A stretch of 64,000 bases of DNA. Origin: Amoebophrya sp. A120. Taxonomy: Eukaryota; Protista; Dinoflagellata. Location of the stretch: assembly GCA_905178155.1 (NCBI GenBank), contig CAJINV010000003.1:8538799-8602798 (forward strand), given 5' to 3'. The notes below the pieces were generated by a model. That model did not search any database and was not told the DNA's origin. It saw nothing but the letters and a program-made list of their open reading frames with translations. A program made the translations under genes and the position numbers. This document shows, in pieces, positions 1,087 through 63,907 of this stretch (the stretch's first letter is position 1; each line of letters starts with the position of its first letter).

Positions 1087-1479
1087 GCTTCCTCTGCCCA
1101 AGACGAAGACGCTCAACTGGGGTTCACCGTCAACCACCCTATTCCGCCTATTAAGAGATTTATAAATATTGCTGTATCAAAACCTTAACCTTTAGAGGAT
1201 CAATTTGTAGCTAAGAAGCAGTGCTAGAAAGAACCACCGAAAAAACAGAGTCTCGCTGCCTCATCTGATCCCCGTCTATGACGTTCTATTAGTCGGAGTT
1301 CATGTAGTATCTGTAAACATCAAAATAGTATCTCATGCAACTCAAAAGTGGGAGGACGACCGCGGTGGATCCGCTTTTCTGCCATCAAATACGGAAATCA
1401 CTCGTTGAGTGGAAGAGATGTAAATGCGATCTCCTTGCTCTTGAGATAAATTGCCGCAAACATTTATACAAAATAGGTG

Positions 1480-38915: not shown

Positions 38916-41900
38916 CTAGCGTTGTCCGCGCGTAAGTCCCACGGGGCGCCACGCAAGCAACCCGTCCGCATTCGTCGCGCACCGAGAGTCGACTTTTTGC
39001 ATGAAACAGACACGGAGATGGTACTCCACTCGAAACGCTAGCAAAGTGTCATGGAATTCCGGCTTCGAGTCATCATCTGACATACTATCCAGCCTGGACG
39101 ACTTTTGCCCCAGCTCTTTTGCAACATCCTTTGCTTCCTCCGACTGATCGTCGCAACAAATTAGCAGGAGATCCCGTAGCCGCAGCATTATCAAATGCAA
39201 AAGTATCATCTGGGTCTGGAAGAATGCAACTTGTGATGTTGCATCTGGATTTGTATTGCATGAGCAGAAAAGGGAATGTAGTTTTTGCTCCGCGGATAGG
39301 GCATTTGTCATGCAAAATAGGCATCAAGAACCCCGCGAAAAATCTGTGATGCTATGGCATGCATCACAGACGTCATGCTCATGGCTCATGCTGCACCTCA
39401 TGCACAACGTGCATGACAAGTCTCAGAATCTTCCAGACCCAGACAGTTTTGCATTTGATAAGCATCATGTTTTGGCGAAACTCGAGAACCACCTCGGCTC
39501 CAATCTTGTTGTCTTCGCCCGGCGCCGGTGGAAGCCACATCCAGGACCGCGGCGTCAGGTGCTCGCGGGTCACGCAATGCTGCGCAGCCGGACTGTTCGT
39601 CGCGCCGCCTTCCACGTTGTGAGCCAAGGCGCAGCCAATGAGGCCATAGTAGTACTGGCGCTCGCAGTTTTTTGGTTCGGATGCGACGCAGTCGGGAAGA
39701 CCAGCAGCGGGCTGCGACTGGAACCACATAGAGCTCTTCAGAGCGGCGGAATTGTCGTCCCCCGTGTTCCTGAAGTACGGTGTCTTCTCGATAAGCTCGC
39801 CGAGCCTGCCCTCATGCACCACCGACGGGCTGACGTCATTAAAATTGCACCCCCAGACGACTGACAACTTGTAGTTCTTCTTGCTGTCGCTCCTCTTGTT
39901 GTTGTCGCCTGTAATTTGCGTTTTCGAAATAGTCATCAGTGGCCACATAGCGAAGGGGTCGAATAGCTCGTCTTGGTCGTCGTTCTTGCGAAAGAGGTTT
40001 TCCGGGTCGTCAACCTGCTGTTTGAGTGCGATGCCCGGCTCGTCAGAGTCTATCAATTTCAAAAGCGTTTGCGTTTGTCCTTTATCGCGTCCAAAATAAA
40101 TAATTTTTTTTTTTTCGATAAGTTCGTGGCTACGATATTTTGTTGCAGCCGCATAACGGTCTTGGAGAGTCTTGGTTGCGTCTTCCTCTTGGCCCGAGTT
40201 GGAGGCGGCCTCCGCTTTGCCTTTGAGTGTCTCCGCTTTGAGTTTCTCCGCTTTGAGTTTCTCCACGTTCCTTATGTTTCTGTAGAAGAAGCCGGAAAAG
40301 CCTGCACGGCTGCCAAAGCTCGAAAATAACGAGGCAAGATGGCCTATTCAAACAAAATGTGTCACCGTCAATGTTTTAGCATGTTCAAGTTCATTTTGCG
40401 ACCCAAAGAATTTGACTTTTCGTTGTATCCAACGCGTGCCCATGTCTATCAGCTGTTGCAAATGTGGCACGGGAGCACCAGACTTCGAGCATGGTGGCCC
40501 GGGGAGTTGTTGAACGCAGTCCAGAAGCCCTGCGGAAAGGCTTTGCCGTTGTACAGACCGACAGCGCGGCTCCAGAACGTCCGGCGCGGGGCGGCTTTCT
40601 TTTGGCTGTCCGGGACACGATCTTCGCCGGGGGGGTTCTGCGTGGCGTGTCATATAATCAACTACTACCGACGCCGGGTTATTCGGAATTTTAAGGGTGC
40701 AAAGAAATGGCTTCTCGGGAGGCGGGCCCGACCCTGCCGGAAGCCTGAGTGGATAGCTAAAGCAAAAACGTTTTGAATATGACAAACACTAGCGCGCAAC
40801 CTTTATCATCAAGCCACTGCGCCACGCTTCAGCGTTTTAGCTAGCTGCTGCCACAACTGCGCTCGTTCGTCGCGTTTCTATTTTGCGCCAGCTTCTTCGT
40901 AGTAATCTTTCAGGTGCTTGGCCATTGCTTCTCTGTGTTGGATCATCCTCTTCGAGCCCAGCTGCAGGACAAAGCAGTTCCAGTTTTGTCAACAACCAAA
41001 ACGCTCTTTCGCCAAAAACAACAAAACGTCATAAGTGCGTAGGTCTACAGCAGGCGGAGGGCGAGGGCTTTGGGTTTAAAAGCAGCTTGAAAAGCAAGCA
41101 GCTTGATACGAAATCAGAGCAGCTTGGAAAAACTGCAAAGGCGGAAGCTAATCCCCCTGGCACTCTCGCTCTGCCTCTGGCCCCACCTGGGGCCACAGCG
41201 ATAGCCCCAGGCGGATTAGCTTCAAACAATTCTTGCAGCTTTTTCGAGCTGCAGCTGCTTTCTTTTCATTTCCACCGCCAGCCGCTGACCTTTCTATTAG
41301 TCCCAAGCTGCTTCCGCACCCCGATCGCCTGCGGTTGTAGATCTCAGTCGGCCACTTGCTTTGAAGCGTTTCCGTTTATTTTGGTCACTGCTGACAAAGC
41401 TGGCGCCTGCTGCAGCTCGATAAAGATGAGCATCGGCCTAAAGTAGAAGATTGCCGATAGTAGCTGCCCCAGCGGGGGGTAGTGAGGTCCGTCCTTGCGC
41501 TTTTTCTGTCTTCGTGCCAAAAAAAAGGACGCGACTTCTCTGCCCACCATGCCTCCGGGAGTACTGTTATGCACGACGGCGCCCGCGGCGGCGGTCGATA
41601 ACCAATTCGCTCCACAGCTGGCATCCCTTTGGCTTCGAATCGGGAAGCCTTCCCGCCCGCATGCTATGGCCCCGCCAGGGCCGGCCCCCACCAGGGTCGG
41701 CCCCTTGGGAGCCCCAAATCGGGCCCACAGCATGGAGGCTGGCTCCCTCGCTTTTTGCTTTTGGCGGCCTTTGCGTTTTTTGATTTTTTTTGTGGAAAAC
41801 ATAGGCGCGCTCTTTGCCCTGCTCCCCCGTTTATAAGTGCCCGACTTTTCATTCTGGCTGGCTTGGCGGCCTCCAAATGGAGACCAAAACGAGGCCCATC

Positions 41901-44900
41901 GTGTGCGGGCTCGCTTTCTTTTTCCCCCCGCCAATCTTTGGGCGCCCCTTTTTGCTTGGGCGCCCAAAATCGGCGGAAACAGGTGCGCGCAAGGCGCCTC
42001 AGAAAGGCGCCCCTTTTGCCAGCTCCCCTGCGTCATTTTATCAAGCGCGAATCGATAGAATTGGGCTGGGCTAGTTTGCCACCAAAGCCCCGGCCGCTTG
42101 ATCACTGCAAGTCCTATCCTGGTATAGATACTAACTACCTTGGCACAAAAGAGCGCAAGCGTCAGTGTGAGTTTGAGTTTCGGCGTTGGGCTTGGGTTTG
42201 AGTCTCAGCGTTGGGCTTGTGTCTGAGTTTCAAGATGGAGCTTGGGTCTGAGTTTCAGCATTGAGCTTGGGTCTGAGTCTCAGCATTGAGCTTGAGTTTG
42301 AGTCTCAGAGTTGAGCTGTAGTCTCAGCATTGCGCTTGAGTTTGGGTCTCAGCGTTCAGCTTGAGTCTGAGTCTCAACATTCAGCCTGAGTGTCAGTCTC
42401 AGTCTCGACTTCGAGTTTCAGAATCCGCTTGGAGTTTGAGTTTCGCTTTCGAGCGAGCGACTTCAAGACGGCCGGCGGACAAACGAAAGTCGTCCGAGCC
42501 GACGGCCGTCGGACGGCCAAAAGTTGTCTGACGGCCGTCGAACGGCCAAAAGTCGCCCGATGGTCGTCGGACAGCCAAAAATCGCACGACGGCCGTCGGA
42601 CGGCCAGAAGTTGCCCAACGAACGGCCCAAAAGTCGCCCGGCGGCCGTCGGACAGCCAAAAGTCGTCCGACGGCCGTCGGACGGCCCGAAATTGTCCGAC
42701 AGCCAGAAGTCGTCCGCCGGCCAGAAGTTGTCCGACGACCGTCGGACAACCAAAAGTCGTCCGACGGCCGTCGGACGGCCAAAATTCGTCCGGCGGCCCT
42801 CGGGCAGCCAAAAGCTGTCCGACGGCCCAAAAGTCGCCCGAAGGCCGTCGGGCGCCCAAAAGTCGTCCGACGGCTCCGAAGTTGCCCGACGGCCGTCGGA
42901 CAGCCGAGAGTCGTCCGACGGCCGTCGGATACCCAAAAGTCGTCCGACGGCGGTCGGACAACCGAAAGTCATCCGACGGCCGTCGGACAGCCCAAAGTCG
43001 TCCGAAGGCCGTCGGGCCAGCCAATGCCAAAAATCGTCCCGATCGTTCGGGGCCGGGTTGATCAGATTGGGCGCGCCGAAGCCGAGGCAACCAGATCGGG
43101 AACGCTGCAGCCGGGGCGATCAGACTGGGCGCGCCGGAGCCGGGACGACCAGACTTGGCGCGCCGGAAATGGAGCGACCAATCTGGGCGCGCCGGGGCCG
43201 CGACGACCAGGCCACATTGGGCGCGCCGCGGCTTTGTTTTGGGGCCGGCGCTTTTTTCTTTTTGGTTTGCTATCTAGATGATGCTAGCTGGCGTTTGCAT
43301 TTCTTCTGATGCCTACTTCCGGGCGAAGCTGGCTTTGCTAGTTTTCTATGTCAAAAAACGCGCCCGGCCGCTTGAAAACTGCCGGCCGTTCTTCACGGTA
43401 GGTGCCAAAAAAGCCGCTAGGATAAAACGCTCGCGGCCTCACTACATATCAGCGACCGACGGGGGCCAATAAAAAATGCCTATGGAGAAATTGACGCAAA
43501 ACGAAAACGCGAGCGAGTGCAGTGATGGCAACTAGCTACCAAACGAAGCTGATAGAGTAGCTTTCTGTTGATGAAGGTAGAAGCTGCGCGCTGGCGTTAT
43601 ATAGCTCCATCCCATAGCTGAGCTGCAGCAGTTTACTCCTTTTGCTGAGCTGCGGAAGTTAAAATTTTGCGACGGGAAAGAGAACGGCCCGCGTCGAGTT
43701 TTTTTTTGCATGTAGCTACGTACAATTTTTTTTGGAAGGTGGCGGCGTCACGTTTTGACATTTTTGGAATCGCGTTCACTCATGGAATCACGTTAACGGA
43801 ATCACGTTTGCGACGGAATCGCGTTTGTCTAATCGAGTTGAGAGAGTGAAACAACTCAGACGCCGAAATGCCCACAACGCACCTAAACGAACGCCGGGCG
43901 GACCCAGCGGTCCGCCGGGACCAATGACGCGCCCCGCCGGCCAAGGCGCTGGCCAACGGGAGCCAGGAGAACCCCAGGCAAGCGGCAGAAAAACCGCGCA
44001 GGCCGGCAGGGTGCGGGGCCACCACCTCCCAAGAACGAGAGGAGAGAGTCGTCGGCCAGGGCAGCCGACCAGAAACCCCAAACCCTACACCCTAAACCCA
44101 AGCCCGAACGCAGCTAAGCTGATTCCATCAACTTGATTCCGCTCTAAACGTGATTCCAACTTGAAAACGTGATTCCGCTTCCAACCATTTTTTTTTGCAT
44201 GTAATTACAAACGTTTTTGCTTCAGCTATCCACCCAGGCCTCCGGCAGGGTCGGGCCCGCGTCCTGAGTTCAGGCTTCCGGCAGGGTCGGTTCCGCATCC
44301 TGAGCAGCTTTTTTTGAGGGCCGACCCTACAAATTCCGAATAACCCGGCTTCGGTATCGGTAGTAGTTGACTATATGACATGGCGCGGCTTGAGATGTTT
44401 GGTTGCTCCTGAGAGTCTGGGGCTCTTGTCACTCCTTGACCAAGGGCCTCCAGCAAAGGACCTTCAGAACCCAGAAAAAAAAACAGCAAAACTTCGAGCA
44501 AATTTGACGACGACCCGGTGAAAAATCCCGGAAGTTTTGCACATTGCACGGCATGGCGGGCGAGGTTTCTTGCGAGGCATATTTGTGACAGGTGACAAAT
44601 CTGCAAACCCTTGCATTTTGCACGGTATGGTGGACGATTGCGCGTTGGCCAAAAAATCTTGTAGCGCATCATAAATTTTTGGTCCGTGCGCAATCGTCCA
44701 CCACACAGCGCAAAATGCAAAACTCGTGGGATTTCTTGTCGCCGGTTCCTGCTTTGGGCTCTCAAAGTCCACCATACCGAGCAAAATGCGCGATTTTTAA
44801 GATTTGCCACCGGGCCATCGTCAAACTTGCTCAAAGCTTTGCTTTTTTTTTTTGGGTTGTGGACGTCCTTTGCTGGAGGCCTTTGAAAGGGAGTGATAGG

Positions 44901-47900
44901 TGCCAGACATTCTCAGGAGCAACCCGACATGACGAGCCGCACTATCCCGATCGTCCGTGGCCGGAAACCGGGTCGCTGAAGTGGTAGAGGACAGCCTCCC
45001 ACGCAAGGACCTTCTGGGGCCGTGGTTTTGGTCTGTGTAGCAGCAGTGCCGTTCTGGGACATTTCTGGACCAACTTCAAGTTCAACATGCTGGATTAGCA
45101 TGCTTGAAATATTGCAGGTAGCTTGCCGCATTCGCAACATGAACATTTGGCTTTTGGCAATTCGGCAGAAATGCATACTCATAGGAAACCCATCAAAAGC
45201 CAATTTTTTTGCTCAAAATGAATACCAATACGCCAAAACGGTGACGGTGACAAATTTTCCCTGAATACGGCCTATTTGCGAAAAGCGCTCTGGCTCCTCA
45301 CTTTTCCTTCTGATTTCGTCTCTGATTTCGGTAAGATCTGGCTGCTTCGTAGTTTCGCCTCCGATGTTGATCATTTTCTTTTCCTTCTCTGCGCTAGGAG
45401 CAAGATGACTTAATTTATTCCACAAGAAGGAGAAGCCCAAGCCCAACCTAGATTCCCCATCTTTGCTTGTGTCAACGGAACTGCTAGAGCTATCTGTGCC
45501 AAGTCTTTGTTCTCGTCGTTCTTCGGGCAACTTGAACAAGTCGTCGTAAGGGATGAAGCGCAGGTCCTCCTCTATCTGTTTAACAATTTCTTTCCTGTTT
45601 TCCTTCGCCTTCTCCTCGTCCTCGTCGTCTTTGGGCTCTAAGTTCATGTCGCGCAGCGCTTGCTCGCATGCTTCAGCTTTTTCATGGGGTGTTGGTGTAG
45701 CATCATGAGCGGCATCAGCACCAGCAGCATATGTTGGGCCACCAGGAGCAGTAGGAGCACGGCCGGAAGGGTTGCAGTCGCCAGGTTCCCAGGCATCGCC
45801 CACGAATTTTCGAGGACGATCCAACAGCTCTGCTTCTACTTTTTTTTCTTGCTCGTTACGCTCCTCTTTATTACTATTAGCAGGTTCTCCTCCAAGGGGA
45901 AACACTGTAAATTTTGGAAGTGCGACTGCCTCGGAACACGAACCGAGACCGCGGAAAAATCGCTTCGTGTTCAAGTCTCGTGGTGTTATTGAATCGAGCC
46001 AGTTCTTCGCTTCTTTCAATGTGCCATGACAGTAGAGTTGTTTATCCGCATCCCGTGTCTCTATGATCTCCTTCTCCTGCTCCTTGTTCAGGATCTTCAG
46101 CACTGTGTGCGTCTCGAGCGCGGTTCCTCGCCGTTCACGCCTTGGATCGTCTGCGGGCGGATCTCTGATCAATAGCTCATCCCGCAATCGCGGCTCGCCC
46201 AACTCAGCGTGTGGTTGTAGTGTGTTCTTGACCGGGACGTGTATTGCTGCGCGGCTGTGTAACCTCGCCTTTGTAGCTGTCCACAGCGGAGGATCTTTGT
46301 AGGACCTCCATTTGCAGCCAAGGACTTCAGGCGTTGGATCAGGTGGAATAGCAACCCGCTTGGCCTTTCCTTGAGTAAAAGGTCGCCGCCATTTGTTCTT
46401 GCTTCGGTAGTCACGCAATGCGGTTGTCTTGTGTCCGCTTCGTGTTTGCGGTCGAAGAAAATCAGCCCTGCGATCTTCCCGAAGAGGGTCTGGTGAAATG
46501 GAGAGAGCTGGATCATCAGGTGTATCGAACCGATCGAAAACTAGCGCTGCTCCAGGATCGCTTGTTTGGGCGGCTGCTCTCCCGCCAGGCCGCCCGTCTA
46601 CCCGCCCGGTGCAATGCAATGCAATATGGTGCGCAATCCACGCATTGCACAAGCGGGCATATCGGTGCACGTTGATCTTAGGGCGGAAAAGTCGGCAAAT
46701 CGCATCATTTTTGACAGCGCACTTTTTGGGGGGGCAAAAAAATTGTGGCTGTTGGGGGTATCAACACTGCTTTTTTTCCTGTTGGCCATGTAGCCGCTGG
46801 CGCCACTCTTCGTTGTCACGGTCCGCCATCCGACCCTCCCCTTTTTCCAATAGAAGCGCAGTACTTTGTTGAAGTTGCACAGGCCTGCGGCTCTCCGGCG
46901 CGGGAAGCCGCGCCCCCTCTCCCGCATCCAATTCCGTACGCGCCCAGACATCTTCTCGTCTCCCCTCTGCGGCCGGACGTTGAAAATGCGGACGCGCCAA
47001 CAATCAAGTGCTTCCGGGGGGGGTGCCGAAGGGGGGGGGGTAAGGGGGTCCGCTTGGGCTACCGTTGGGCTACCATTTTGGGACCTGCCAAGTCAGCAGT
47101 TTCCAATGGGGATTTGGGGGTCGGCATAGGCTACCGAAAGGGTACCCGGAGGGGGTACCCGGAAGGGGTGTCCGAAGGGGGCAAAAATGCCCCCCCCCTG
47201 ACCACCCCCCTTGCCGGGCCTTCTTTTCCGGGCGACGGGCCTCGTCGAGCCCCGGTCACGGAGGCGGCCCGGCCACTGTTCGAAGAGCGGGCCCACGACA
47301 CAGCGCCCGGCCATCTGGACGACAACGCACAGAGCGAAGGCGTTGTGGCCTGCTTCTGGTCTTGGTGTTGCGACATTTCCAAAGCTCAGCTACCATGTTT
47401 CCTGTGGAAAAGATCAAGTGACATGCGAGGCGTGTCGGCTTCCAAGATGTTGCGCCCCCAACAAAAAAACTTTTTTTACCCCCCCAATAAGTGCGCTGGC
47501 AAAAATGATGCGATTTGCCGATTTTTCCGCCCTAATGATCTGTGGGACCAAATCAAATTGGTAACGCTTAACTTGAGCGTGCAGGGCTTCTTGGTGTTTT
47601 TTCGGTGCGTGGCTCGAGGCCTCCTCCTCCTGGCGAGATGGGTTGAACGGCACCTCGCATGGACTCAGAGGTAGCTTGTCCACTAGAACTGGAGTTGACC
47701 ACGGGTTGTTAAAATTCTTCTCGTCATGCTTGCTCTGACTCTGAGCACCATCCGCCGCGCTGCTGCCGTCTACTAGGCTCCGGAGGGCGAACGCGTCAGA
47801 GTACACCCTTCTACCATAATTCAAGTCGCTGTCACTTTCACCTTCACCTTGTTTGGATTTTCGTTTTCCACCTTCGAAAACGGTGAAAAAATAATTACTC

Positions 47901-50052: not shown

Positions 50053-53000
50053 CTACGGAACCAAAATGGAAGATTTACCCATCCTGCTGGCGACGGTGAA
50101 GCTCCATGCTGCATGCTGGCCAAAGTCTTCTAAGCTCAATCGCTCACCTTCCATCTTCTTCGAAATGGACGTCAGGGTCTGAGGTGCCGTGCTACCTGAC
50201 GACCTTGCAAGGGTGCTGAAAAAGCCACCCCAGCAAAGCTCTCCTATCTTCTCCTCGCGTGCTTTCCCGTTCTTGTTTGTTCTTGCTTGCACCTTTGACA
50301 CCGGGCCCTTTTGTCCGTCGTCGTCCACGTAATGAAGAGGCTGCACGCCAGGACGGTGATGAAAGGGCAAATCCGCAAACTCTGCCTTTAGATGGTTCCA
50401 CAAGAATTGCCCTTCAGATGGGCCTCCAACCTCAGCCCGTTCGTCACCGGTAACTGGATCGTATTGAAGGTCGGGAGCAGCAAAACTATACGCCTTATTG
50501 CGACTCCGAGTCCTCAAACCATCGAAGTTAGCCTCTCGAAGCCGCGGCTCCGTGGACATCCATGGATAAGGCGTTAGCAGAGAGCTATCTTCAACGCCAG
50601 AGCCTTGCGTTTTTTTCTGCAGAAAAAGGCTGGCGCCGAGGTTCTGAAGACAGAACCGCTTCCAGATGGTCCGGGGGAAACCGTCACGGCGGTCCATGAC
50701 CGACCCGGTGTCTCCTGGTCCCTCTTCATCTTCGTCGTCTTTTTGCCAAGTAAGCACTGGCCCCTCGTCTTCGTCAGTGCCTTCCATAGAATTGTCATCG
50801 GACTTTGGCTTAATGGGGTTGCCCTCCTCCACCACATATGGGAACTCTTCCCGGATAGACGTAGCAGGACTGTTCGAGCCCGAGCGGAAAACTGCGGCAA
50901 CAAGCACATCAAGCCAGTTCAATGCTGCCCGTCCATCCAGAAGGTGATACTCGTGGTCCTCTCTGTCGTCGTAGGCTTCATCCGTGTCGTCCCCCGCCTT
51001 CCGAGCAATCCAACGCTCTGCCTGCATTGGGTTAATAAATCTCCTTAGCCGAGGCTCCGGCAGTGCGGAGGGGCGCTGAGCCCCACGCGTAAAAATCGCC
51101 TGCAGTGTCGGGTCGGTAAGAATTTGGCGCCCGCCCACCTTCTTTGCGTTAGCGTCTTCGCTTTTGGGGTACATGGTAACCCAAAACGGGGCCTCGCTAT
51201 CGTCGCCCGATGCCGGTGCAACTGTTCCGCCGGTGAAAGTTGCCTCTTCGTCACCGTCCCCAGCCGGCCATGCTTTAGAGCTTAGACATCCGTTGGAATC
51301 TTAGTGGGTGACTTTGCGGCAATATTAGGGGACTTGCGTCAAGCAGCACCCGTGAAAACGCTGGCGCGCTCGCCCCCAGGAGACAAATCCCGGGCACAAA
51401 TGAAGACGAGAAAGAAAAATCAGACATCAACGGAAGAGGAGGCTCCAAAGAAGCCACCATACCTTTGGCATTCTTGACGCAGTTTTTCCTTTATTGAAAA
51501 GACGCAGGCTCCAGTCGCGAGGGGCTGCAAAATTTTTCACTGGTAATCTTGCAGCAAGTGCTCCTTTTTTCCCAACCGTACTTGGTGCGGCCAAGTCGGC
51601 CACCCCTGCTTTCGGACATTTATCACGCGGAAGTCGTTGGCTTTGACTGTGATTTTGTGGCGATTTTACGGCTAGGGCTACCTTCCAGGTTTAGACGTTC
51701 TAGTCCGAATGCTATGACCAATATTTTGGCGATCAAATTTGACGCCATAAAAGGAACATTTTATCGGCTGCAAAATCGTTCGCAATTTCTTGCTGTGCTA
51801 CGTTTTACGCGAAAGCCGCAACATGCGAGTTCGCACGAATAGAGACGGCGGTGGCAGTGCGAACTTTCTTGCCTGTCATATTTTGTAGCCGTCACGCACA
51901 AAAAAAATGAGAAACAAAACTAGAAGCGCAATCGAAGCGCCAAAGAAGCAATCGCATCCGGCTACTTCGCTGGCGCCCATTGCGTCACCGTACGCGCTGC
52001 CTCTTGCGCAGTGCGTCCCAACAATGGCAAGGTTGAAAGTACAAAAACAAAAAGAAATAAATATAAAGCGCGCCTCACGAAAGTTGCTGAGCATGATGCT
52101 GCAGAGGCAAGCGCGCGCCAAGCTGCCCATGCAATGGAAACAGTCGCACACCCCCAAGGCGGGCAAATAAACGAACAAAAACAACCGAGCTTTTTCAATA
52201 TTGCAGAAAAATCACCACGCTAATACCTAACGTCTGTCCAGGCTGTAGCAGGTGATGCTCTTGCTTGCGGCGGGTGCACCACTTTGTTAAATTTTTCTAT
52301 GAAGTCTCTCTGTTCCCCGTCGCGCGGTGGTGGAACCCATACAAACCCATCCTGATGTATTGCGTCCAGTGTGCCGCGCGGTAGCTGCTGTCCTACGAGT
52401 TTGGGCGAGCTGAAGAGCGACGCCGCGACTTTCTTTGTAAAGCGGGTATCCGTGTTCCGCGTCACGACCCACATCGACTCCCCAGGCGTGCTGTCACCAG
52501 CGGACGTGGTTATTTCGAGGCCATCGTCTAAAACAGCAGAGTTTTCTGCAATTTGTTCACCAACCACTGTCTTTATCACGCCAAACCAAGCCAGCCCGTT
52601 GATAAAGATCATCATTAGGTCGAACACATCCTGAGAAACACACAGACACGACAATCCTACTGTGGGAGTTCCCTTCTTGCTTGTATCTCTTTATTTCTGT
52701 GCTCGACGACCTGTCCTAGACTTTTGGCCGCGAGCGTTGTGCCCGTGAGCTTCTTGTGTTCATTTCAAAGTATCAAGCGTTATCATGTTGGACCAAAGAT
52801 GTACACCGGCAAACCGGCGCACATTTTGCGGAGCCGAAGGTGAAGCGCCGGCGAACCTCCTACCGGGGTGTAGATGCCGCAGACCCAGACCTCACTGGGG
52901 ATGGGCTGCGTACACACTCCCCTCACAGGCAGAAGGCTCACGCCCGGTCGGCTTCCCTCTCCTCCGGCGGCTGCCGGCAAACCGGCGCACATTCTCAATT

Positions 53001-56000
53001 TGCACGGAGCGAAGCCCCGCGCGCCTGGCAGAGTTTGCGTTCACCGCTTGTGCTCCTCGAAACTCCGGGCCAACGCAGTTTGCGCCCACCTAAAGGAGGA
53101 CGCTCGGAACAGGTCGCCGAACACCTTCCCTGGCAGAGCAGGGTCACCCTTTCGGGTGAACGGGTTCACACTTCCTTTTCTTGGCCGCGTGTCTCGCACG
53201 CTGCTTGTCCGCCAAATGCTGCCGTCGTCCTGTGCTCTCCAGCATCTCCCGAGCGCCCTTGTACACTAGCCAAGGGATCCGCCCTGGCTCCAGCTCCTGC
53301 ACCGAGGTCGGGAGCGCTTGCTGCAGCGCAGCTATCTTCTCTAAGCGTGTCAGTGGATCGCTTAGGTTGCGAGCGCTGGCAATCCACGCCCAGCAAATGT
53401 CTCGACCAGCTGTGTCCTTGTGCAGTTGATGGAGAAGGATCTGCGACGCGAAGTTGCCGCATGAACCCTTCACGATGCTATAGCACTCGGCCGCGTTGTC
53501 GACGTGATGCACCACTAACGCGTCGCCGGGGGCGAGGTCCGCGGCGAAGAACAGATGCGCCACATGCGCGCAAAGGGTCTCGAAGAACGCGATGTCCGGC
53601 TTCAGGTGCGCCACCCAGGACGGCAACTCCTGCACGTGGAACGTGAAACCATGCCCGCGCGAGTGGTCTGCGTTCAGCATCAGCGCGCCAATGTAGATGC
53701 CGCGCGCTCGCGTGCAATACCGCCCCGGCCTCGACGGCTTCGCTTTTGTGAAGTCGTCCAAAGACGCGTCGCCATACACATGGATAACCCGGGATGGAAA
53801 CCCCTTGCGGATTATCTTTGGCCGAAGGCTACCTGCCTGCAGCTGCAAAAGGAGGACCGTCTCAAGCAGCTGTCTGCGTTCTCTTGGGTCCTTGATGCGC
53901 CTACTGAGCTTGTCGCTGCGCCAAACATCAAGACCCCGCACAACACCAACAGCACCTGCATCGAGCTGCGCGCAGTGTTGGAAGAGCCCTCGCACGGTCT
54001 CGACAGCCTCCCTAGTGGCACCGCGACGCCGTATTGCACCCAGTAAGCCGGACAGAAGCTCCTGGAGGTGCGCGACCTTCTCAGCCGCGGGGGCGACCGA
54101 CAGATACTGCTCGCACCTTGAACGTGTATAAGCCAGCCCGAGCGCCACCAGGCTCCGCTGCTGGATGTCCCTTTCGCCCCCGGACGGCAGGTAGTTACGG
54201 TCTTGCTTGGCCGCCTGCTGCGGAAAGCCACACAACGATAAAAACAGATCGACAAGAGCCGAGCTATGTGGCATACTTTTCACCCTATCCATGAGATGGA
54301 TATCATCTATGTACACTGGTGCCAGTTTGCGTAGAATACAAACCAGCACCAGCATGATAGCCCCTGAGCAGGCGACATCCTCATACACGGACACTATGCT
54401 ACCGAAAACTGTCACCAGGCTCTCGATGACGTCCCAACGCCGCGCCGCGGTCTTTCGCTTCTGGGGGACCAACCCGCTTGCGAAGGCTTCCTCCTCCTCC
54501 GCCGTGAGCCTGGGGACGACGAACACGCTTTTCGTCCTGTCCGCTACTGCGAAGTTGTAATAATAGGACTCCACGTCCTTCGTCTCGCTTGCTGGGATGA
54601 AACTGGACGCCACGTCCCTCTCAAGCATCTCAAGATCGGGATCGTCTTCAAACACAGAGGGCGGGGCGGGCTCGTAGCACGGCCGACCTGCGACGCCCGC
54701 GTCGCGCACCTCCTTCAAGAAAGTGCGCTCGTCGAAAATGTCCTGCGTGACGTCTCTTTTGCACTGGAACAAGGTGACGGGCCGAACGTTGCTACTCGCC
54801 AGCCGCGTCACGATCTCGCACGATGCGCGACCCCCCAAGAGCCTCATCCTCTCTCGAACTTTGACGCAGGCATTGTGCCTGCGCAGGTCAATGCAGAGGC
54901 GCGCTCTGTTCTTCTGCTTCACCGGGAAGCAGACAGCAGGCCGGGACTTTGCCTGCTCGACCTTGACCCACTTGCCCGTAGCCAACATCTTGGCCGCCTG
55001 GCGTTGCATCTCCTTGATGTCCCCAGGCTCGGCCCATGTGTCCGCGGGTATCTTGCGCGCCTCTTCAGCGCTGAATATCTCCGCTCTCTTTTGTTCCTGG
55101 GCCTCGTCACGATGGGGGAGGCCAATGTCATCCGCAACCGATACCCAAAGGCCCGAGGGGTCTATGTCCTCGTCGGTTTTGAAACCGGCGACGATCTTCT
55201 CTCGCAGCCCGAGAACCTTCCGCCTGCGCTCGGGCGAGAGGCTCGCGACGTCGCAAGCCCGGGCCAATAACCGAAGGAAGAAGGCCCACTGCTTATCTTT
55301 GTACACGAACCGAACATCTGCAGACATCTGCGCGAGCAGAGCCCCATTTTCCTGAGCTGAATCCGAATGGACTTGCAGTAGCCACCCTGCTAGCCGCTGG
55401 GTCGCGACGTTTATCTCATCGGCGGAAGAGCTCTTCACCTCGTCGATGACTGGCAAAAAGAAATCCGGAAGGACATCCCGGCGCCCGTATGTCCGCGCAG
55501 TATCGCGCTGCACCACCGCCCCCAGCGGGTTTCCCGGCCTACTATGGTCCTCGGCGCCCATTCGCGATAGATAGACTTCTAGATAGACTACGCGCAAAAG
55601 GAGAAAGAGCGCTTCGCTTGTTAAGGTTGGTAGGCCGGGCAGAAATCAATGTAAACAAAATCAAAACACAATCAAAAACACAAAGCAAGGGAATCAATAT
55701 GCTCAGAGGTCGCTGTGTGTCATATCATTCGAAAAGCAAATCAACCCACATCCCGGACCTACCAAATCAACCTCACCTCGTCCCGGCTTCTGCGACGCCC
55801 ATCTTCCTTACCCAACTGCGCCGAGACTGAACACGGCCCGAGGCCTTTGAACCGAACAAGCACAAGAGGGAGCCGCCCGCTGCGGATAGCAACTGAAAGG
55901 GCCTCCACCCTTGGCCTTCATCCTTGATGTACACAGCAACGGCATTCATCTTGATTGGACAGTAAAACGCTACCGGTTCCGCACAAAATTACATCGAGCG

Positions 56001-59000
56001 CGAGCACTGAGTGGCCAAACAGCTGGCAAGCTCAGTCGTTTCAACATTCATCATCGTGTGTTCTTGAGTGAGTGGTCTCTCCCGTCTGCAAAACATCTCC
56101 CCGAATCGAGTCGATGCGGCAAACCGGCGCACATTTTCGACCACCGTGCTGGCGTGTGATTCTTGTGGACGAGGTCCGGCAAACCTGCGCACATTTTGGA
56201 AGGACTCGTCGAGGGACTGGCGGAGGCGCACCTCCGGGACAGCATGCACCAGGCTTGCGGGGCATGCCCGGCAAACCAGCGCACATTCCTGACACGATGA
56301 GTTCCTGAGTGATATGATATCTACCGAAGTCATGGAGACGACAGTTTTCCTGAGTTACAGACGGCGGACCTAAGGCTCGGTCGCTTTCTCCTTCAAATGG
56401 CCCTCCGACAATCCGAAGCCCTTGCTCTTGTTGATGTACTGCATGAGACTCAAGCTCCCGCCATGCTTAAGCTTGCAGGCAGCTGCCGCCATAGGAGCAG
56501 GAGCCCTTCAAGTACAGCTCGCAGATCATGTCCCTCGCCTGCTTCTTGTTCGCCGGGGCGCCCGCGTCGCCACCCCCGGGACGCTTGTTCCCCAGGGCTT
56601 TCAACTTCTGCTCGAACCGCGCCTCCAACTTGGACAGCTTGGCATCCGTCGCGTCGTCGGCCTTCTTCAACAACAGCGAGCTCTTCACCTCGGTCTTGAG
56701 TCCGACGGTCAAAGCCATCCGGATGCGCCACTGGTACTGCTGCCCGGCCGCCACCCCGGCGGGGGCGGGCGCCATCACGCGAAAGGCACTCTCAGCGGAA
56801 TCCCACCAGATCTTGAACACGGCGGCCTTACCGTCGCCGGACTCATGTCCCTTGCCCATCGCCTGCGTCGTGATGAACGTGTGCGCAGCAGTCATGTGGT
56901 CCATCAGTATGGCCCCGATCGAGAGCAGGCAGGACACGAAGATGAAGGGCGTGAAGTCGGGCTCCTTCTTCACAACTGTGATGCACTTGGCTAAGGTTTC
57001 CGCCTCATAGTGGCGGCGCACCTTCGTGACCTGCTGGAAGTTGGGCTTGTACTCCTCGGGGACGTCCGCCACGGAGTTGTTGAAGGCCTGGATCTGGGCC
57101 GGGGTAGCCGGAACCGCGATGCCCGCGTCCGCGAACAACCCGGCAAGGCCCTGCGCGAGCGCCTGACTAGCGGCCATCCTGTTTTGTTCTGCTGTGATAA
57201 AAGTAGTGAACTACGGGTAGAATGCGATGAGGGATGCGAATTCTCGCTCCTAAGACTAAACGCTGAAACTGTTGCGACGCGCTGTCGTCGTGAGTCCTGT
57301 CACTGTTGCGAATTTTTGGTGCGGAACAATGTAACGAACTACCCGGCCAAGCCGCGGCGCGCGGTGCGCGGGGGAGCATTGATCGCGAAGAGTGTGTATT
57401 CGTTGAACTGTCTCAAATTTTTATCAATCATTTCCATCAGGGCGCAGTCTGATCTCAATCGTTGGAGGTGCATTTGCTCGCGAGATGATCATCATTGTAG
57501 CAGAGACGCTTGCACGAGTGGCCAGGGCAAAGCAAATTGCTCTGTCACATTCACTGCACGATTGCCCTCGTAGCGTAACTCTGTATCAATGTTCTTCCAC
57601 CTTCCGACCTGCGCGATCTCCTCCCGTGGCAGGCCTCCCTGCGCAGCGGCAGACGCTCCTCCGACCCTGAAGGAGTAGAGGTTCCACAGCTTCCGCCCGT
57701 CCTGCTTCTCCTCCATGTCGCACCGGCGGACTACCTCTTCCATGCATTTTCGCAAATGCGCGCCCGGTGCTGCGGCGTAGCCGGCCCACGCGTTATCCTC
57801 TATCGCATGAACCGGACAGAGCACCCGCCCAAGGCCCAAGGGCTGAACGGCACTGCAGCAGCAACGCATTCGGGCGTGCCAGCCTCGCTCATACTGGTCT
57901 ACTTTGGATTTACTGACAAATGAGTGGACGCGCCACTCCCCGCCCGCCTTGTAGACCTCCCGGGAGGTGTTCCTGAACTCATCGGGCCGCTGAAACAAAA
58001 ACCAGGCGGAGACGCAGAAGTCCAGAAAGACGCCGAGGTCGTAGGTCTTGCCCTTGGTAACGGCGAAAGGGGCCGCGCCTGACTTGATGGCGTCCACTTT
58101 CTTCCAAAATGACAGCAGGGCGGGATGCTGCTGCACCTGTATGACCCCCTTTTGCAGCTGCGTGAAGCAGCGGCTGTAGTCCTTCTGCTCTGCGTCGGTC
58201 AGTGGCCTGACGCAAGACATGCGGGCCTTGACATGTGCGAGCATGATGTGCCGCGACTTTGGGATGTTGTCACACCGCGCCAAGGCCGCGGCCGTGGCCT
58301 TGATCCTTTCGGAGCTCCAGGGCTCCGCTGGGTCCCACTTGAAGTGGGAGCAGATGGGTTGACAATACGTCTCGAACGCCTTCTGCTGCTGCTTCTTCGT
58401 CGCCGCGGAGAGTTTCTGGCCCTCGAACTCCTGGGCCAGTTCCTCAACTGCTGCCGGGTTCGCACTTAGTCCGGCGAGAACGTCGCCGATCTTCCCCGGC
58501 AAACCGGCGGATCTTCCCCGGCAAACCGGCGCACATTTTCTGGTGACTATCTCCGGCTACTGCCTTCTTCTCCTCCCGGACGAACCTCCGCTTCTTGGCG
58601 GGCTCATGCGGGTGACCCTTATCGCTGCCCAGCGGCGGGTCGCTAGATTCCTGAGGGCCGGCGCCCTGGCATTCCTGAGGTTCGCGCACGTCGACATCGC
58701 AGCCGAAGAGGACGTCGGCCCCGGCTCCGATCATCGCAAGGTAATCCGCGTCCATTTTTCTTTCCGTAGTTCTGGCTTTGCACAGCTTGAAAAAAAAATT
58801 CTTGGGCCCTTGCACTATGTTGAACTGCAACACCTGTACGGCTGTCCCTTGCCTATGGCTATGATCATCAACGAGCGCGGGATCTGGTCTACCTAATGAT
58901 ATCCATTATCACGCCAAACCAAGCCAGCCCGTTGATAAAGATCGTCATTAGGTCGAACACATCCTGAGAAACACACAGACACGACAATCCTACTGTGGGA

Positions 59001-62000
59001 GTTCCCTTCTTGCTTGTATCTCTTTATTTCTGTGCTCGGCGACCTGTCCTAGACTTTTGGCCGCGAGCGTTGTGCCCGTGAGCTTCTTGTGTTCATTTCA
59101 AAGTATCAAGCGTTATCATGTTGGACCAAAGATGTACACCGGCAAACCGGCGCACATTTTGCGGAGCCGAAGGTGAAGCGCCGGCGAACCTCCTACCGGG
59201 GTGTAGATGCCGCAGACCCAGACCTCACTGGGGATGGGCTGCGTACACACTCCCCTCACAGGCAGAAGGCTCACGCCCGGTCGGCTTCCCTCTCCTCCGG
59301 CGGCTGCCGGCAAACCGGCGCACATTCTCAATTTGCACGGAGCGAAGCCCCGCGCGCCTGGCAGAGTTTGCGTTCACCTCTTGTGCTCCTCGAAACTCCG
59401 GGCCAACGCAGTTTGCGCCCACCTAAAGGAGGACGCTCGGAACAGGTCGCCGAACACCTTCCCTGGCAGAGCAGGGTCACCCTTTCGGGTGAACGGGTTC
59501 ACACTTCCTTTTCTTGGCCGCGTGTCTCGCACGCTGCTTGTCCGCCAAATGCTGCCGTCGTCCTGTGCTCTCCAGCATCTCCCGAGNCCTTGCACTATGT
59601 TGAACTGCAACACCTGTACGGCTGTCCCTTGCCTATGGCTATGATCATCAACGAGCGCGGGATCTGGTCTACCTAATGATATTGATTTTGTCGGCGCCGA
59701 AGTGGTCGCGACGAGTGGGGATGTCGTCCCACCTCGCAGAATACGTCGAGTCTTGGTCGAGGTATCTACTTACTTCCATTCCAGTTCCTGAAAGCGGTAT
59801 GTCATCCGTGAAGTACGAATCGAAATCCGGCGAGAGCCGTAGCCCGGCGTACGCTGCGTTCACAATCGGAGGAGAAATCGCTATTTGGCGAAAGTCAAAC
59901 AGTTCCCCAGGAAAACGAGAAATCGGGGCAGCTTTTGCCAAGAAGTACCCGGCTGCAATTTTGTTTCGCCTACTTTTCGCCTCTTTTGCAGCCAAGGGGC
60001 GATGCAAAGAGGCCGGGTTTCTTTTCTCAGTTGCCTGGTGGAGGTCGAGGTCGGTCTCGATGCCCCGTCTTTGACTTTGGGCGTCCTCGACCATCTGCTC
60101 GTTTATTTCCGCTTCTATTGCTCTTCTGCTTGGCTTTGGCCAGCGCAAATTTGGAGAGCCAATTTGAATTTGTGCGGTCGGCCAGCGCAAATTTGGAGAG
60201 CCAATCTGTTCCGGCGTGTACACGCGGCCTTCCTCTTCGGCCTCACGGTCACGAAAGTTACCGATTCGCTCCCCCGCGCCAAGCAGCTTGTTCAGCTCCG
60301 CCAACACTTCAATCTCGTCGTTTGCGTGTGTCGGGAACCGGTTGGCGCGGCGGTTCTCGTCAACTTCCTTCAGCGGTATCTGGTGAAGAGGTTCTCGGAC
60401 ATGCGCATCCCACATCATGTGTTCCTGGTCCATCGTGTTTCTGCTTTTGGGCGAATCGGCTCCCCCGATATTTGGCGACAGCTTTTTCGCAAAATGCAAA
60501 CCAATTTGACGCTGTGCCGCCCACCGTATCTGATCTCTGTGCGCGTCCTACTCCGATGAACTCGCCCCCCACCCCCAAAACACTATTGTTATTTGGGTGA
60601 TCCAAAAAGCACACGTCGGGGGTTCAAATAGTTCCTTTTTTGGTGACCAAGTAACGCGTTTTTTTGTTTACGTGCCTCACGCTCTCCTGGACCTGAGGGC
60701 ATTGGCTTCTAAAATAGCGCAGCGCTTGACCTCAAAACCCTTGGTATTTCGGCGACAAAGTGCTGTCGGTATCTGCTTGGTCGCAGAGGATTTCGGCAGC
60801 GAGAACAGGACCGGGGTCGTCTTGGTAAGGTTCTTGGAGTAGTACTAGGCACCCGGCTGGGGAGGAAGCGCGCGCCGGCCGGTGGTTCACAAAGAGGTAG
60901 ACGGGCATGAAGTTTCCGTGCGCGTAACTTTATACACCAAGGCACGCCTCAGCTTTTTGGTGGAGTAGTTGGAACAAAACAGCTGGCGCCAGCGCCACAC
61001 TTAATTATTGGAATGAATTTTGCTGATCTACTCCAGCGCAGGAGAAGACATCTCGCGCGAAACTTCATACACCTTGGTATACTGCAGTCAGCGACGCAAC
61101 TTTTTTCGTCTTTTGTAGCCATCATGCTGCACAAGCAGATATAATGTCGGCGCTTCGCGTTCGGCAACCCGGATTACACTCGCCGGCGGCCCGGCGCAGA
61201 TTTTTGGCGCGTTCCACATCGAACACACCATGCGGATTAGCGATCAAAAGGCGCTCGCCGAAGTCATCGGCTTTGCATATTAATTACGGATAGGCTTTTC
61301 TTGCCGGTAAAATAACGGCTTTTTTGGCGGCTGCAAATCCATGTACTATCCGATTTGCGGCCCATGCACATGCAAAACAAAAACAGCCGGGGCATATAGT
61401 TTGCTGCATGAATGCAGCTAAAGATGACCAAAACTCCTGCTACTTTATGCCGTGGCATAGAACGCCACGCGCCGCATTATGATGCACTTTCCGCGGAGGA
61501 GGTGTAATAGATAACGCGCCAAAGATCTTCGCGAGCTTTCTAAATTTGAAGAAGCCTCCGCTCACGGCTGACAGCATGGCAAACGTGGCGCGGGCCCGAT
61601 GGTTCGGGGCGATGTATTTGGCGACGTGGTTGGATCGTGTTCTCTCATAAAGATTTACCACCCCTACTTATCTCCTATTGCTTTGCCAGGCACAGCATGC
61701 GTTTCTGCGGCGCCCCACGTCCTCTCGCTGTCGGGCATCTCCGCGACCAAATGCCGCGACTTTGTCGAAATGTTGAAGCAGCCTCTGCAGCCAAGCAGTG
61801 CGCTACTTGTACTTGGTGAGCAGATAGCGAAGCAATTGTGTATTTTCTGATCAAAATAAGGCGCGTCACTTGCTTACCAAAAGGCGCGCGTTTTCTTTTT
61901 GGTTGTTTAGTTATCCAATCCAAGAACGAAGCGAGCCCATTTGGCGTATGTCGGCGGTCCTCCCGGCAAGTCCACAGGACGCAGGCCCCGGCCCACCAAG

Positions 62001-63907
62001 GCGGAGCCGCAGCCGAGGAGAACCCAGCACAGAGAGCGGATGAACCTCGGAACAGGAGGGCCAGCCGACGAGCGCCAAAGAGGCGACAGCGCGGAAGTAA
62101 GATGTTAAATCGCAATTATAGAAGGCGTTGCGGAAGCCGCAAGGCAACGTCACAAGCGTGACGCGAATAGCAACAAAATGCTGCAGTAGCCAAAGCTGGC
62201 TAGTGTCACAAGCGTGACGTCACAAGCGTGACGTCACAAGCGTGACAAAAACTAGCAACAAAGATGTTGCAGGAGCCAAAGGAGCTGGCGGGCCAAAGCT
62301 GCCGGTGTCACAAGCGTGGCGTCACAAGCGTGACATGAGTAGGCAAAACTGCCAAGCGAGCAAAGCTGCTCAATAGCTGCGAAAAAAGCAGGAAAATCAA
62401 AAAGCTTTGACCTTCCATCGCGCGCCCGCTGCCCGATTCATGCATGTATTGGATCCAGCTAACTAAATAGCTCCCGCGCCAAGGCTCGAGCGACGCTCAC
62501 AGGCTCGTTTACTCTTTCCTTGCTGCGTATGCATTTTAAAAAGGGCATGTGCTTGGGTGGGACATAACACGGGCGTTTTGGGGGGGGTGGGGGGCGAGTT
62601 CATTGGCGTACGTCCGAGTTGATGTCGTAGTGCTTCGTCTTTGCCACTTTGGTGCGGCTGTCGCCGTCATTGTAGTTGCCAGATAGTTTGTTCTGCGTTT
62701 CGACATTGTCGGGCTCTATTGCCTTGACGCGGGGGTACAGACGGTTTTCGTCGTAGGCCTATGGGGGGAAAGCTGGGAAATGTTTCGCACCTATATCGTG
62801 CTAGCTCGCACGGCAGACCGTGCTAGGTATTACGAGATAGGCATGAAGCGCTTGCACTACTTTATTTTTCGTTGATACGTAACTGCGGTCCGCTGGAAAT
62901 GGTACGTGGCTGTCGCCACTATCGCCGAGCGGTGTGATGCCGTGTGCCTCTCTGCTCGCGAAATTACGGACGACGTGGCTGCAATACTGCTTGAGTTCGG
63001 CGTTGGGACATGTGCGGATGTCAGTTTTGCGCACGTACGTGCGTGCGAAGCGACTTTGTGAGATTGGCGCTTGCGCGCGCGCCGAGATTTTTGCGAGGAG
63101 AGCGCATGCATGCTTCCTGTTTTGGAAAGTGCGCGCTCGCGCGAAGAGTCTGTCCGGAGCGCACGCCACGCGTGCAACACTTAGTCTGCGATCGGGCGCA
63201 CGATCCTGCGATCTTGCACGTTTGCGATCGCAAGCGCGCACGGGAGCTCTGTTCGGACCGCGCGCGCGCGCAAGGCTTGGTCTGCGGTCGCACGCTCGAT
63301 CCTGCGATCTCGCGACCTTGATTGCGACTGCAAGATCGCAAGCGCGCGCGCAAGGCTTGGCTTGCGATCGCCGCGTGCGCGCGGGCCTACGACTTTGCGA
63401 TCGCGCAAACGTCTGCGCGTGCGCGTTCGCGCGCAAGCGCAAATCGCGCAAAGTTGCACGCACGCACTAGCACGCACGCAAAACTCACAGGACATCCAAA
63501 TTTTTTTGGGGCATACAAAAATTTTCCGGTGTCAAAATTTCATAATCGGGCAGTTCCAGTTCCTGTGGCCCTTTGCGCTCCTTGAAGACATATGTGTAGC
63601 CATCTATCATACGGTACCCGGTTTGTTGCCTTTTATCATCCTCCTGGTCCTGACCACCACCACCCATCCTGCGTCGATCTGTAACTACCTGCGACAGAGA
63701 ACCACTTTGCTCGACCCAACGGTCGCCGCTCTGAGTTTCCACTGCATCTGGAAGCTGGCTCTGCCAAGCGGTATAGAAGCCTGTGCCACTCAACAAAGTT
63801 CCGCCGAGAATCAATCGGTGGCTGTCGTCGACTTTTTGTTCTTGCGCATCCGGGTGGAGCCAGCCCTTGCCCTCATCTATGAATGGACAAGTTGATGTTC
63901 GCGACAT
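50053..63907 (-). CDS. Large orphan gene or pseudogene hosting the YR retroelement and three further insertions; structure partly inferred
   Basis: ORF blocks 63546-63907, 62612-62759, 59683-60544, 52220-52569 and 50053-51299. In-frame joins DINSD-AHRDQ and GADKI-TVVGEQ are clear. Two other joins leave an in-frame TAG. Confidence 0.55.
51491..52201 (-). mobile_element. 711-bp introner-like insertion
   Basis: Arms ttattgaaaa / ttttcaatat (9 of 10 inverted match). Confidence 0.5.
52600..52631 (+). other. Internal complementary region (ICR)-like copy of the element's end-to-end junction
   Basis: TGATAAAGA-TC-ATCATTAGGTCGAACACATCC versus the minus-strand junction TGATAAAGA-AT-ATCATTAGGTAGACCAGATCC: 27 of 32 identical, same spacing. 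Confidence 0.8.
53144..55597 (-). CDS. Reverse transcriptase + RNase H (DIRS-like pol)
   Basis: RT motifs RLCIDLRRHN, KDVESYYYNF, VFG and YIDD. RNase H motifs VYGDAS, IAFFETL, HHVDN and WIASARNLSDPLTR. No DDE integrase, protease or methyltransferase seen. Confidence 0.92.
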   Translation of the reverse strand: MRVVYLEVYLSRMGAEDHSRPGNPLGAVVQRDTARTYGRRDVLPDFFLPVIDEVKSSSADEINVATQRLAGWLLQVHSDSAQENGALLAQMSADVRFVYKDKQWAFFLRLLARACDVASLSPERRRKVLGLREKIVAGFKTDEDIDPSGLWVSVADDIGLPHRDEAQEQKRAEIFSAEEARKIPADTWAEPGDIKEMQRQAAKMLATGKWVKVEQAKSRPAVCFPVKQKNRARLCIDLRRHNACVKVRERMRLLGGRASCEIVTRLASSNVRPVTLFQCKRDVTQDIFDERTFLKEVRDAGVAGRPCYEPAPPSVFEDDPDLEMLERDVASSFIPASETKDVESYYYNFAVADRTKSVFVVPRLTAEEEEAFASGLVPQKRKTAARRWDVIESLVTVFGSIVSVYEDVACSGAIMLVLVCILRKLAPVYIDDIHLMDRVKSMPHSSALVDLFLSLCGFPQQAAKQDRNYLPSGGERDIQQRSLVALGLAYTRSRCEQYLSVAPAAEKVAHLQELLSGLLGAIRRRGATREAVETVRGLFQHCAQLDAGAVGVVRGLDVWRSDKLSRRIKDPRERRQLLETVLLLQLQAGSLRPKIIRKGFPSRVIHVYGDASLDDFTKAKPSRPGRYCTRARGIYIGALMLNADHSRGHGFTFHVQELPSWVAHLKPDIAFFETLCAHVAHLFFAADLAPGDALVVHHVDNAAECYSIVKGSCGNFASQILLHQLHKDTAGRDICWAWIASARNLSDPLTRLEKIAALQQALPTSVQELEPGRIPWLVYKGAREMLESTGRRQHLADKQRARHAAKKRKCEPVHPKG
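56370..57177 (-). pseudogene. Gag-like protein with C-terminal CCCH zinc finger, frameshifted by a 4-bp duplication
   Basis: The ORF ends CELYLKGSCSYGGSC-LQA*. Deleting one copy of gcag-gcag (56475-56482) gives C-x7-C-x5-C-x3-H (CELYLKGSCSYGGSCKLKH), continuing to a stop at 56370. Confidence 0.8.
57492..58755 (-). CDS. Tyrosine recombinase (DIRS-like); 5' part frameshifted by a 22-bp tandem duplication
   Basis: QRPDEF (R), SKSKVDQ (K), CPVHA, YSFRVGGASAAA, GRW and LRYEG (Y). Deleting one 22-mer at 58488-58531 fuses the upstream MDADYL... ORF in frame. Confidence 0.9.
58906..59682 (-). mobile_element. Second, head-to-tail copy of the YR element, collapsed at an assembly gap (N at 59587)
   Basis: 58906-59586 repeats 52573-53253 with at least 3 substitutions. 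59588-59682 repeats 58808-58902. Confidence 0.75.
60548..62611 (-). mobile_element. 2064-bp TIR element with GTC direct repeat; reads GT...AG on the minus strand
   Basis: gtc|ctactccgatgaactcgccccccacccccaaaac ... gttttggggggggtggggggcgagttcattggcgtac|gtc. Removal joins DINSD-AHRDQ in frame. Confidence 0.85.
62149..62334. repeat. Six copies of the quasi-palindromic 14-mer GTCACAAGCGTGAC
   Basis: Copies at 62149, 62205, 62219, 62233, 62307 (1 mismatch) and 62321. Confidence 0.85.
62793..63545 (-). other. Intron/insertion rich in GCGC and TGCGATC repeats
   Basis: Separates ORF blocks. Arms atatcg / tcataa. Low-complexity gcgcgc and tgcgatc array at 63060-63480. Confidence 0.5.

Follow-up and report, generated by a model that had tools for sequence, protein, structure and literature searches.

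The locus described here raises the question of whether a 32-nt patch lying close to one end of a retrotransposon serves to bring both ends of that element together. It was found in a 64,000-nt stretch of the Amoebophrya sp. A120 genome (GCA_905178155.1, contig CAJINV010000003.1, positions 8,538,799 to 8,602,798), referred to here as the window, whose numbering is used throughout. A first-pass annotation had described the patch as a minimal version of the internal complementary region (ICR) by which DIRS-1-type elements join their ends, and had proposed that it could serve for circularisation or self-priming and could also align the excision points in pre-mRNA.

The element, E1 (Table 1), combines reverse transcriptase (RT)/RNase H, tyrosine recombinase (YR) and gag-like ORFs with the lack of a target duplication, as is characteristic of YR retrotransposons. 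Its ends are fixed to within one base because a contig of run X3 joins position 52569 to 59683, with one ambiguous letter and no other differences over 1187 nt of flank; in this single insertion, no target duplication was found beyond that ambiguous T. The RT is supported by 190 relatives at E values up to 0.001, by RVT_1 in 3 of 33 aligned members and by a profile match to HIV-2 RT (E 3e-4), and the YR by conserved R, K, R, W and Y residues, a weak Cre match (E 0.064) and integrase clusters (0.97). Pfam searches with nine window ORFs gave no significant family, and for a methyltransferase following RNase H there was no Pfam match in the 33 relatives or the window ORFs, pol stopping shortly past the RNase H motifs. 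The closest proteins (49-53% identity) bear adjacent gene numbers, and the two RTs that were looked up came from Amoebophrya sp. AT5.2. The N-terminus of the YR is likely encoded in another frame (58444-58905), to judge from its resemblance to the N-termini of the AT5.2 relatives. An exact 22-nt tandem duplication (58488-58531) is found where the N-terminal frame changes to the catalytic YR frame, and it may be a lesion or a very small intron, or stem from faulty assembly.

No relative with ends was found in genome contigs, and metagenome contigs gave one relative among 115 candidates. This contig (L001) has all three genes intact (YR, gag and RT/RNase H, at 310-7236) and arranged as in E1, with 29% identity in the RT, and stops without ends 22 nt past the RT stop, as expected if a repeat starts there. 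Protein scans of viral contigs yielded no confirmed relative, an 18-mer scan of them two matches that diverged on both sides, and a further protein search three known matches plus a marginal one.

On the sense strand, the element reads B-spacer-A-B-YR-gag-RT-A, which is the order of split direct repeats, but with its internal pair shifted ahead of all ORFs. In the window as assembled, A starts at 52573 and 58906 and B at 58808 and 59588, with a single N separating A2 from B2. Single-copy sequence in DNA run X1 had a depth of 43-46 and the exact E1 interior one of 39-50, with a sister copy (E2, ~90% identical) at equal depth alongside, whereas two-copy depths were displayed by the B of E1 (87.7), the B of E2 (99.1) and a 48-nt contig without differences over the B1-A2 junction (81.1). 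The same pattern was observed in X2 (for each DNA run, 8 of the 12 records were read directly and the other 4 were deduced from depth bins). A two-copy B and junction together with a one-copy interior show that E1 and E2 have split direct repeats. The same difference in depth rules out tandem full copies collapsed at the N, and an artefactual B1-A2 junction is ruled out by the presence of the 48-nt contig in both X1 and X2. A 60-nt contig over the junction region had a depth of 133. Behind A2, two contigs each in X1 and X2 exit at 59379, and the X1 depth falls to 8.27 in bin 59404-59707; A2 probably ends at 59379, and the true length of E1 is probably ~6.95-7.0 kb, about 150 nt below that assembled. 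The spacer after A2 starts with a complement to the last ~20 nt of A, so that a second hairpin can form at the inner end of A2 (59353-59379), and A1 has a weaker counterpart at the same place. A 20-22-nt motif occurs eight times in the element (52798-59328) and seemingly also in contigs unrelated to it, with loose ends at 59159 and 59302; it is possibly a protein-binding site.

This structure changes two points of the first-pass annotation. The opposite terminus that it placed 6.3 kb away (at 58902) is the internal B1 of the split repeat, the real terminus being the identical end at 59682. Likewise, the view of a minimal splint with only hexamer inverted terminal repeats (ITRs) did not hold: besides the split repeats, 52572-52621 and 58852-58902 form a gappy inverted repeat of ~50 nt, whose score was reached by 1 of 2000 shuffles, although the region was picked after the fold had been seen. 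No long inverted repeat was found at the element ends.

Table 1. Positions of the element E1, its repeats and end signals, and the adjoining host exons in the window.
Feature	Position	Strand	Remarks
Whole tyrosine-recombinase retrotransposon E1	52570..59682	-	7113 nt assembled; X3 joined contig and ORFs
Left terminus, outer arm of 9-bp stem	52570..52578		Sense-strand 3' end; first 2-3 bases unlike A2, match patch
Left arm of degenerate ~50-nt terminal inverted repeat	52572..52621		Overlaps ICR; partner is the last 51 nt of B
Direct repeat A1	52573..53046		Inner end inferred from A2 exit; loose ends behind 59379 in X1, X2
21-nt loop	52579..52599		Same sequence and orientation in 3 left ends and 2 internal copies seen
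Mini-ICR copy 1	52600..52631		9 nt pair with left end, ~21 nt with right end
RT/RNase H ORF	53144..55645	-	YIDD; RNase H motifs near C-terminus; ends without methyltransferase domain
Gag-like ORF, C-terminal Cys/His knuckle	56467..57210	-	Assigned by position; weak Pfam CCCH match; same position in L001
Tyrosine recombinase (YR) ORF	57492..58556	-	R, K, YxxR, W, Y residues
Direct repeat B1	58802..58902		~101 nt, no differences, depth 87.7 (two copies)
B1-A2 junction, loop and ICR copy 2	58888..58965		3-nt spacer 58903-58905; ICR copy 2 58933-58964
Direct repeat A2	58906..59379		
Likely mis-assembled stretch	59380..59587		A1 continuation and one N, replacing short unique A2-B2 spacer
Direct repeat B2, right terminus	59588..59682		Sense-strand 5' end
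Host exon downstream of insertion	52249..52569	-	X3 contig, no differences; open frame
Host exon upstream of insertion	59683..60548	-	X3 contig

The description of the patch itself was accurate. Sequence comparison confirmed that 52570-52578 and 52600-52608 are exact reverse complements separated by 21 nt and forming a 9-bp stem (an exact 9-mer partner within 60 nt has a chance p of ~2e-4), and that 52611-52631 is identical at 18 of 21 positions to the reverse complement of 58880-58900, the mismatches at 52621, 52624 and 52627 falling on every third base. When the real ends were joined bluntly (59660-59682 plus 52571-52580), 28 positions matched the patch with one bulge. The score of 42 is far above chance: 300 Markov-1 random sequences as long as the element reached at most 24, and the best scores in window positions 1-52500 and in the element body were 22 and 19. 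The internal B1-A2 junction scored 32. The spacing had been called junction-exact, and it is so in either of two registers, one ungapped with two mismatches beside the join, the other with one bulged base and none there. Joined ends plus patch fold into one hairpin (RNA -34.7, DNA -19.5 kcal/mol), with 0 of 300 shuffles as low on either strand, and the internal junction plus patch fold less stably (-28.6 and -14.1 kcal/mol, respectively). The patch is present twice (52600-52631 and 58933-58964), and the stretch 58888-58965 folds locally as a 32-bp imperfect hairpin with the same sequence in E2. Internal junction, joined ends and patch complement have the common form RTGAT(A/G)-5 nt-TATCA. The 32-nt patch is therefore a real feature, and it is probably functional.

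To see how the patch behaves in other copies, we compared the three left ends seen, which belong to one family (E1, its sister E2 and a third copy, E3; flanks were assigned to E2 and E3 by sequence type, without bridging contigs). In all three, TTATCA is preceded by CT (TCT in E1 and E3, GCT in E2), in agreement with the patch, and CCA stands in that place at the internal junction; the X3 joined contig places the outermost left bases of E1 within the element. Each of the three right ends finishes with GATAT, after which TGAT follows in E1 and CCAT in E2 and E3. CCAT is the sequence of the internal junction and may reflect a target preference or a longer end. Between E2 and E1 there were no differences at the 78 positions compared over 58888-58965, against 14 at 119 neighbouring positions (Fisher p 0.001), and none in the 32 nt of the ICR alone (p 0.04); position 58944 was excluded from this count, as the A2 allele of the window occurs in no contig and E2 agrees with A1. 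The conserved block ends at 58965, one base beyond the ICR, and takes in the right end, the junction, the loop and the ICR. Since the loop is unpaired, this conservation is no proof of pairing and may reflect protein binding or gene conversion instead. The patch of E3 has a 4-nt insertion, which breaks the pairing with the left end, and two T>C changes, one of them opposite an uncompensated change in the right end, near which lies another insertion. E3 has one A and one B only; it looks like a solo remnant and is likely a decayed, dead copy. No compensatory change between patch and ends was found in E1-E3, the last 30 letters of the aligned pieces being uncovered, which leaves out one E3 pair. 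The first-pass annotation had expected the patch to be conserved and to covary with the ends: it is conserved in one intact sister, but covariation is absent and the pairing is broken in the likely dead E3. By hand depth arithmetic, an X3 contig may carry 27 nt of a left end (52571-52597) near a short right-end piece (~58889-58906) and E2 flank; most of E2 may be missing from it through a reverse-transcriptase skip over the end-to-end stem or through a nested splice.

These comparisons bear on the possibility that the patch is the idle leftover of a local inverted duplication, the split repeats alone rebuilding the ends. Duplications did occur, since B has a second patch-like stretch (16 of 19 aligned positions, a level reached by 1.5% of 3000 shuffles), and both the three unrepaired mismatches and the decay of E3 without compensation would suit a relic. 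A relic would not account for the lack of differences in E2 over the 78 positions, nor for terminal bases that follow the patch in every left end, and we regard it as rather unlikely.

We favour, with a probability of roughly 0.5, the explanation that the patch is an ICR within the terminal repeat that splints both single-stranded cDNA ends for joining before recombinase integration. This DIRS-like role is supported because the terminal bases of 3/3 left ends follow the patch and E2 conserves it, and it is unproven because no compensatory change was found and E3 breaks the pairing; the evidence comes from three insertions of one family. In the mechanism that we propose, the split repeats would supply the overlap to rebuild full ends from a shorter RNA, following the PAT/Ngaro model. 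In the cDNA, the left end would fold back and pair with the patch over its first 9 nt, the right end would pair over the ~21 nt that follow, and a nick would remain where the two ends meet. Once sealed, the join would form a site in which two inverted 6-nt arms flank 5 nt, and the YR would insert the sealed join without target duplication, the 2-3 outermost left bases travelling with the element. As a side effect in the sense RNA, the predicted end-to-end hairpin would let the host remove the element in the way of introner hairpins. In DIRS-1, the ICR is required for retrotransposition and acts after first-strand synthesis, on a cDNA that is single-stranded (PMC7192593, in excerpt). The patch of E1 may also be redundant, since elements with split repeats are presumed to restore their ends with no need of an ICR. 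How the ends of YR retrotransposons are joined is so far mostly a matter of models, with tests confined to DIRS-1, and here the signals (end, loop, patch and junction) lie within ~80 nt, small enough to be rebuilt from oligonucleotides for a recombinase assay.

Folded single-stranded sites of phages and integrons are bound and cut by tyrosine recombinases, and the patch could accordingly be the second half of a recombination site, either as a folded hairpin duplex in single-stranded DNA or as an extra double-stranded YR site. The form common to the junction, the joined ends and the patch complement would fit such a site, as would the one long hairpin of junction and patch with its mismatch at every third base, and the conservation of the loop; tyrosine recombinases acting on single-stranded substrates exist (excerpts of PMC3442271 and PMC4792948). 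Taken alone, a folded site does not account for the differences between the left terminus and A2, which fall exactly at the positions expected from the patch. We consider it possible though doubtful, and compatible with the splint as a later step.

A different role, also put forward in the first-pass annotation, is priming of reverse transcription by the 9-bp hairpin at the 3' terminus of the element RNA. The stem does end exactly at the sense-strand 3' terminus, at which excision as an intron would leave a free 3' end, and hairpin priming has been proposed for DIRS-1 (as reported in the excerpt of PMC7192593). Yet the sense-strand hairpin is no more stable in its context than shuffles (z -0.27 as RNA), and priming with the RNA hairpin kept would flip the loop, which has a constant orientation in 3/3 left ends (p ~0.125 under random flipping). 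According to the same excerpt, the DIRS-1 ICR is unnecessary to start reverse transcription. Self-priming thus appears very unlikely.

The splint would act on cDNA, and we also considered the fate of the element in host transcripts. The X3 contig skips E1 together with two non-canonical inserts (51270-52248 and 60549-62615), yielding an 848-aa open frame. The joined form 52569/59683 has a depth of 0 in DNA runs X1 and X2, and runs X3 and X4 carry E3 flanks common to X1 and X2. X3 is a different sample from X1 and X2, is only guessed to be RNA and contains no E1 interior or E1 junction. We lean towards splicing as the cause of the skip, an empty allele in that sample being possible. Should E1 be spliced out of host genes, it would connect YR retrotransposons with the non-canonical introns of Amoebophrya, for which there is no explanation so far. 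Of the two inserts, 60549-62615 has terminal inverted repeats (TIRs) and a 5-nt direct repeat, and 51270-52248 has neither clearly. A typical introner was seen at 39189-39460; its TAT...ATA inverted repeat is perfect over 13 nt, and its direct repeat has 5 nt. Nested inverted-repeat pairs at 40336-45276 and 46674-47540, with a 25/29-nt tandem array at 42143-43196, probably represent additional TIR inserts within this region of the host gene.

Could the patch then be mainly a long-range pre-mRNA clamp that unites the 5' and 3' cut points for splicing? The skip in a likely-RNA contig with its long open frame, the absence of the joined form from the DNA runs and the E3 flanks common to all four runs are consistent with it, as are a predicted duplex of 5' end and patch of -23.8 kcal/mol, against -4.6 for the terminal hexamers alone, and the use of terminal inverted repeats by Amoebophrya introners (excerpt of PMC7789003). 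In contrast, constrained folding of the two ends predicts that the sense RNA prefers the end-to-end ITR fold (-48.0 kcal/mol) over the splint (-45.3), a difference of 2.7 that is small and within model error. This ITR fold, with 1 free base 5' and 4 free bases 3' around a TAT...ATA stem, opens the patch. The 3' end of insert 51270-52248 misfits this geometry, and 60549-62615 is ambiguous through its 5-nt direct repeat. As the X3 skip may also be an empty allele, we find the clamp unlikely; alignment of the cut points by the patch, as originally suggested, is plausible, but the ITR fold also joins these points and is predicted to be the better one.

For DNA of either strand and for antisense RNA, the prediction is reversed and favours the splint by 3.9-4.7 kcal/mol, or 4.0-4.7 for the two DNA strands, again margins within model error. 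A tentative model, which we hold to be improbable at present, is a two-state switch: the host would splice the RNA-folded 7-kb element as an intron, yielding an exact-ended template, and the cDNA would refold onto the patch for integration by the YR. Such an element would amount to a retro-intron of the nucleus, whose group-II-like life cycle is assembled from unrelated parts. It would also be a living form that combines split direct repeats with an ICR; an intermediate of this kind has not been observed according to the excerpt of PMC4157794.

The comparison with known systems is limited to what excerpts of the cited papers describe. DIRS1-like elements such as Dictyostelium DIRS-1 (PMC3266345) share with E1 the YR, gag and RT/RNase H, an ICR complementary to both ends, the lack of a target duplication, a short junction motif carried by the left end, the target motif at the right end being another one, and a partly complementary "divergent ITR". 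In contrast to them, E1 has two copies of its ICR, which lies within the terminal repeat at a distance of 30 nt from the end; it measures 32 nt, compared with 88 for DIRS-1, and the survey (PMC3266345) gives sums of 85-130. E1 also has split direct repeats and the YR first, and lacks a strictly complementary ITR of 31-304 nt and a methyltransferase. The ends of the element would thus work like those of DIRS, yet membership in DIRS1 fails for want of the long ITR and the methyltransferase, an assignment made by features.

With Ngaro, VIPER/TATE and PAT-like elements (PMC8547959, PMC6681497, PMC4157794), E1 shares the A1...B1A2...B2 sense order; Ngaro and VIPER likewise lack a methyltransferase, which PAT-like elements have after RNase H, and the solo-like remnant E3 resembles those of Cafeteria Ngaros. 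E1 differs from this group in that its internal pair lies upstream of all ORFs, and not downstream of the YR or between methyltransferase and YR, and in that the sequence of its internal junction departs from that of the joined ends; E1 has in addition an ICR-like patch and a degenerate ITR. Its gene order is YR-gag-RT, where Ngaro and VIPER have gag first. The element departs from Ngaro/VIPER in both repeat position and gene order. SymbioDIRS of Symbiodinium (PMC5890265) is likewise from a dinoflagellate and has split repeats, a divergent RT missed by Pfam and a shuffled recombinase/Pol order, but it is arranged as A-coding-B-A-B and has a cytosine methyltransferase, and the excerpt of its description makes no mention of an ICR.

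Amoebophrya introners (PMC7789003; PMC12130899) lie in genes and are skipped by RNA contigs without GT-AG ends, much as E1 is skipped by the X3 contig guessed to be RNA, and they resemble E1 in a terminal inverted repeat starting with TAT and in a predicted end-to-end hairpin. They differ from the 7-kb coding E1 in being short and non-coding and in their 3-5-nt direct repeats; no such boundary repeat was found in E1, whose flanks differ and share 1 letter. Introners of A120 have been attributed to TIR, LTR and non-LTR elements (PMC12130899). The words "DIRS" and "Ngaro" do not occur in the main text of that paper, and DIRS, Ngaro, recombinase and VIPER gave no matches in the text supplement of PMC7789003. 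We found no published element with both an ICR and split repeats, and no DIRS-type introner, in the sources at hand; further supplements or repeat databases may list the family.

In the portions of the literature considered, ITR plus ICR and split direct repeats are treated as alternative designs (PMC7192593, PMC3266345, PMC7789003, PMC12130899, PMC8547959, PMC6681497, PMC4157794, PMC13465315, PMC5890265, bioRxiv 10.64898/2026.05.21.726589), and intermediates between the two were not observed (PMC4157794). ICRs and split repeats are each known, and a shuffled ORF order together with split repeats is known in dinoflagellates (PMC5890265); the element described here unites the two end designs that define the main subgroups of YR retrotransposons.
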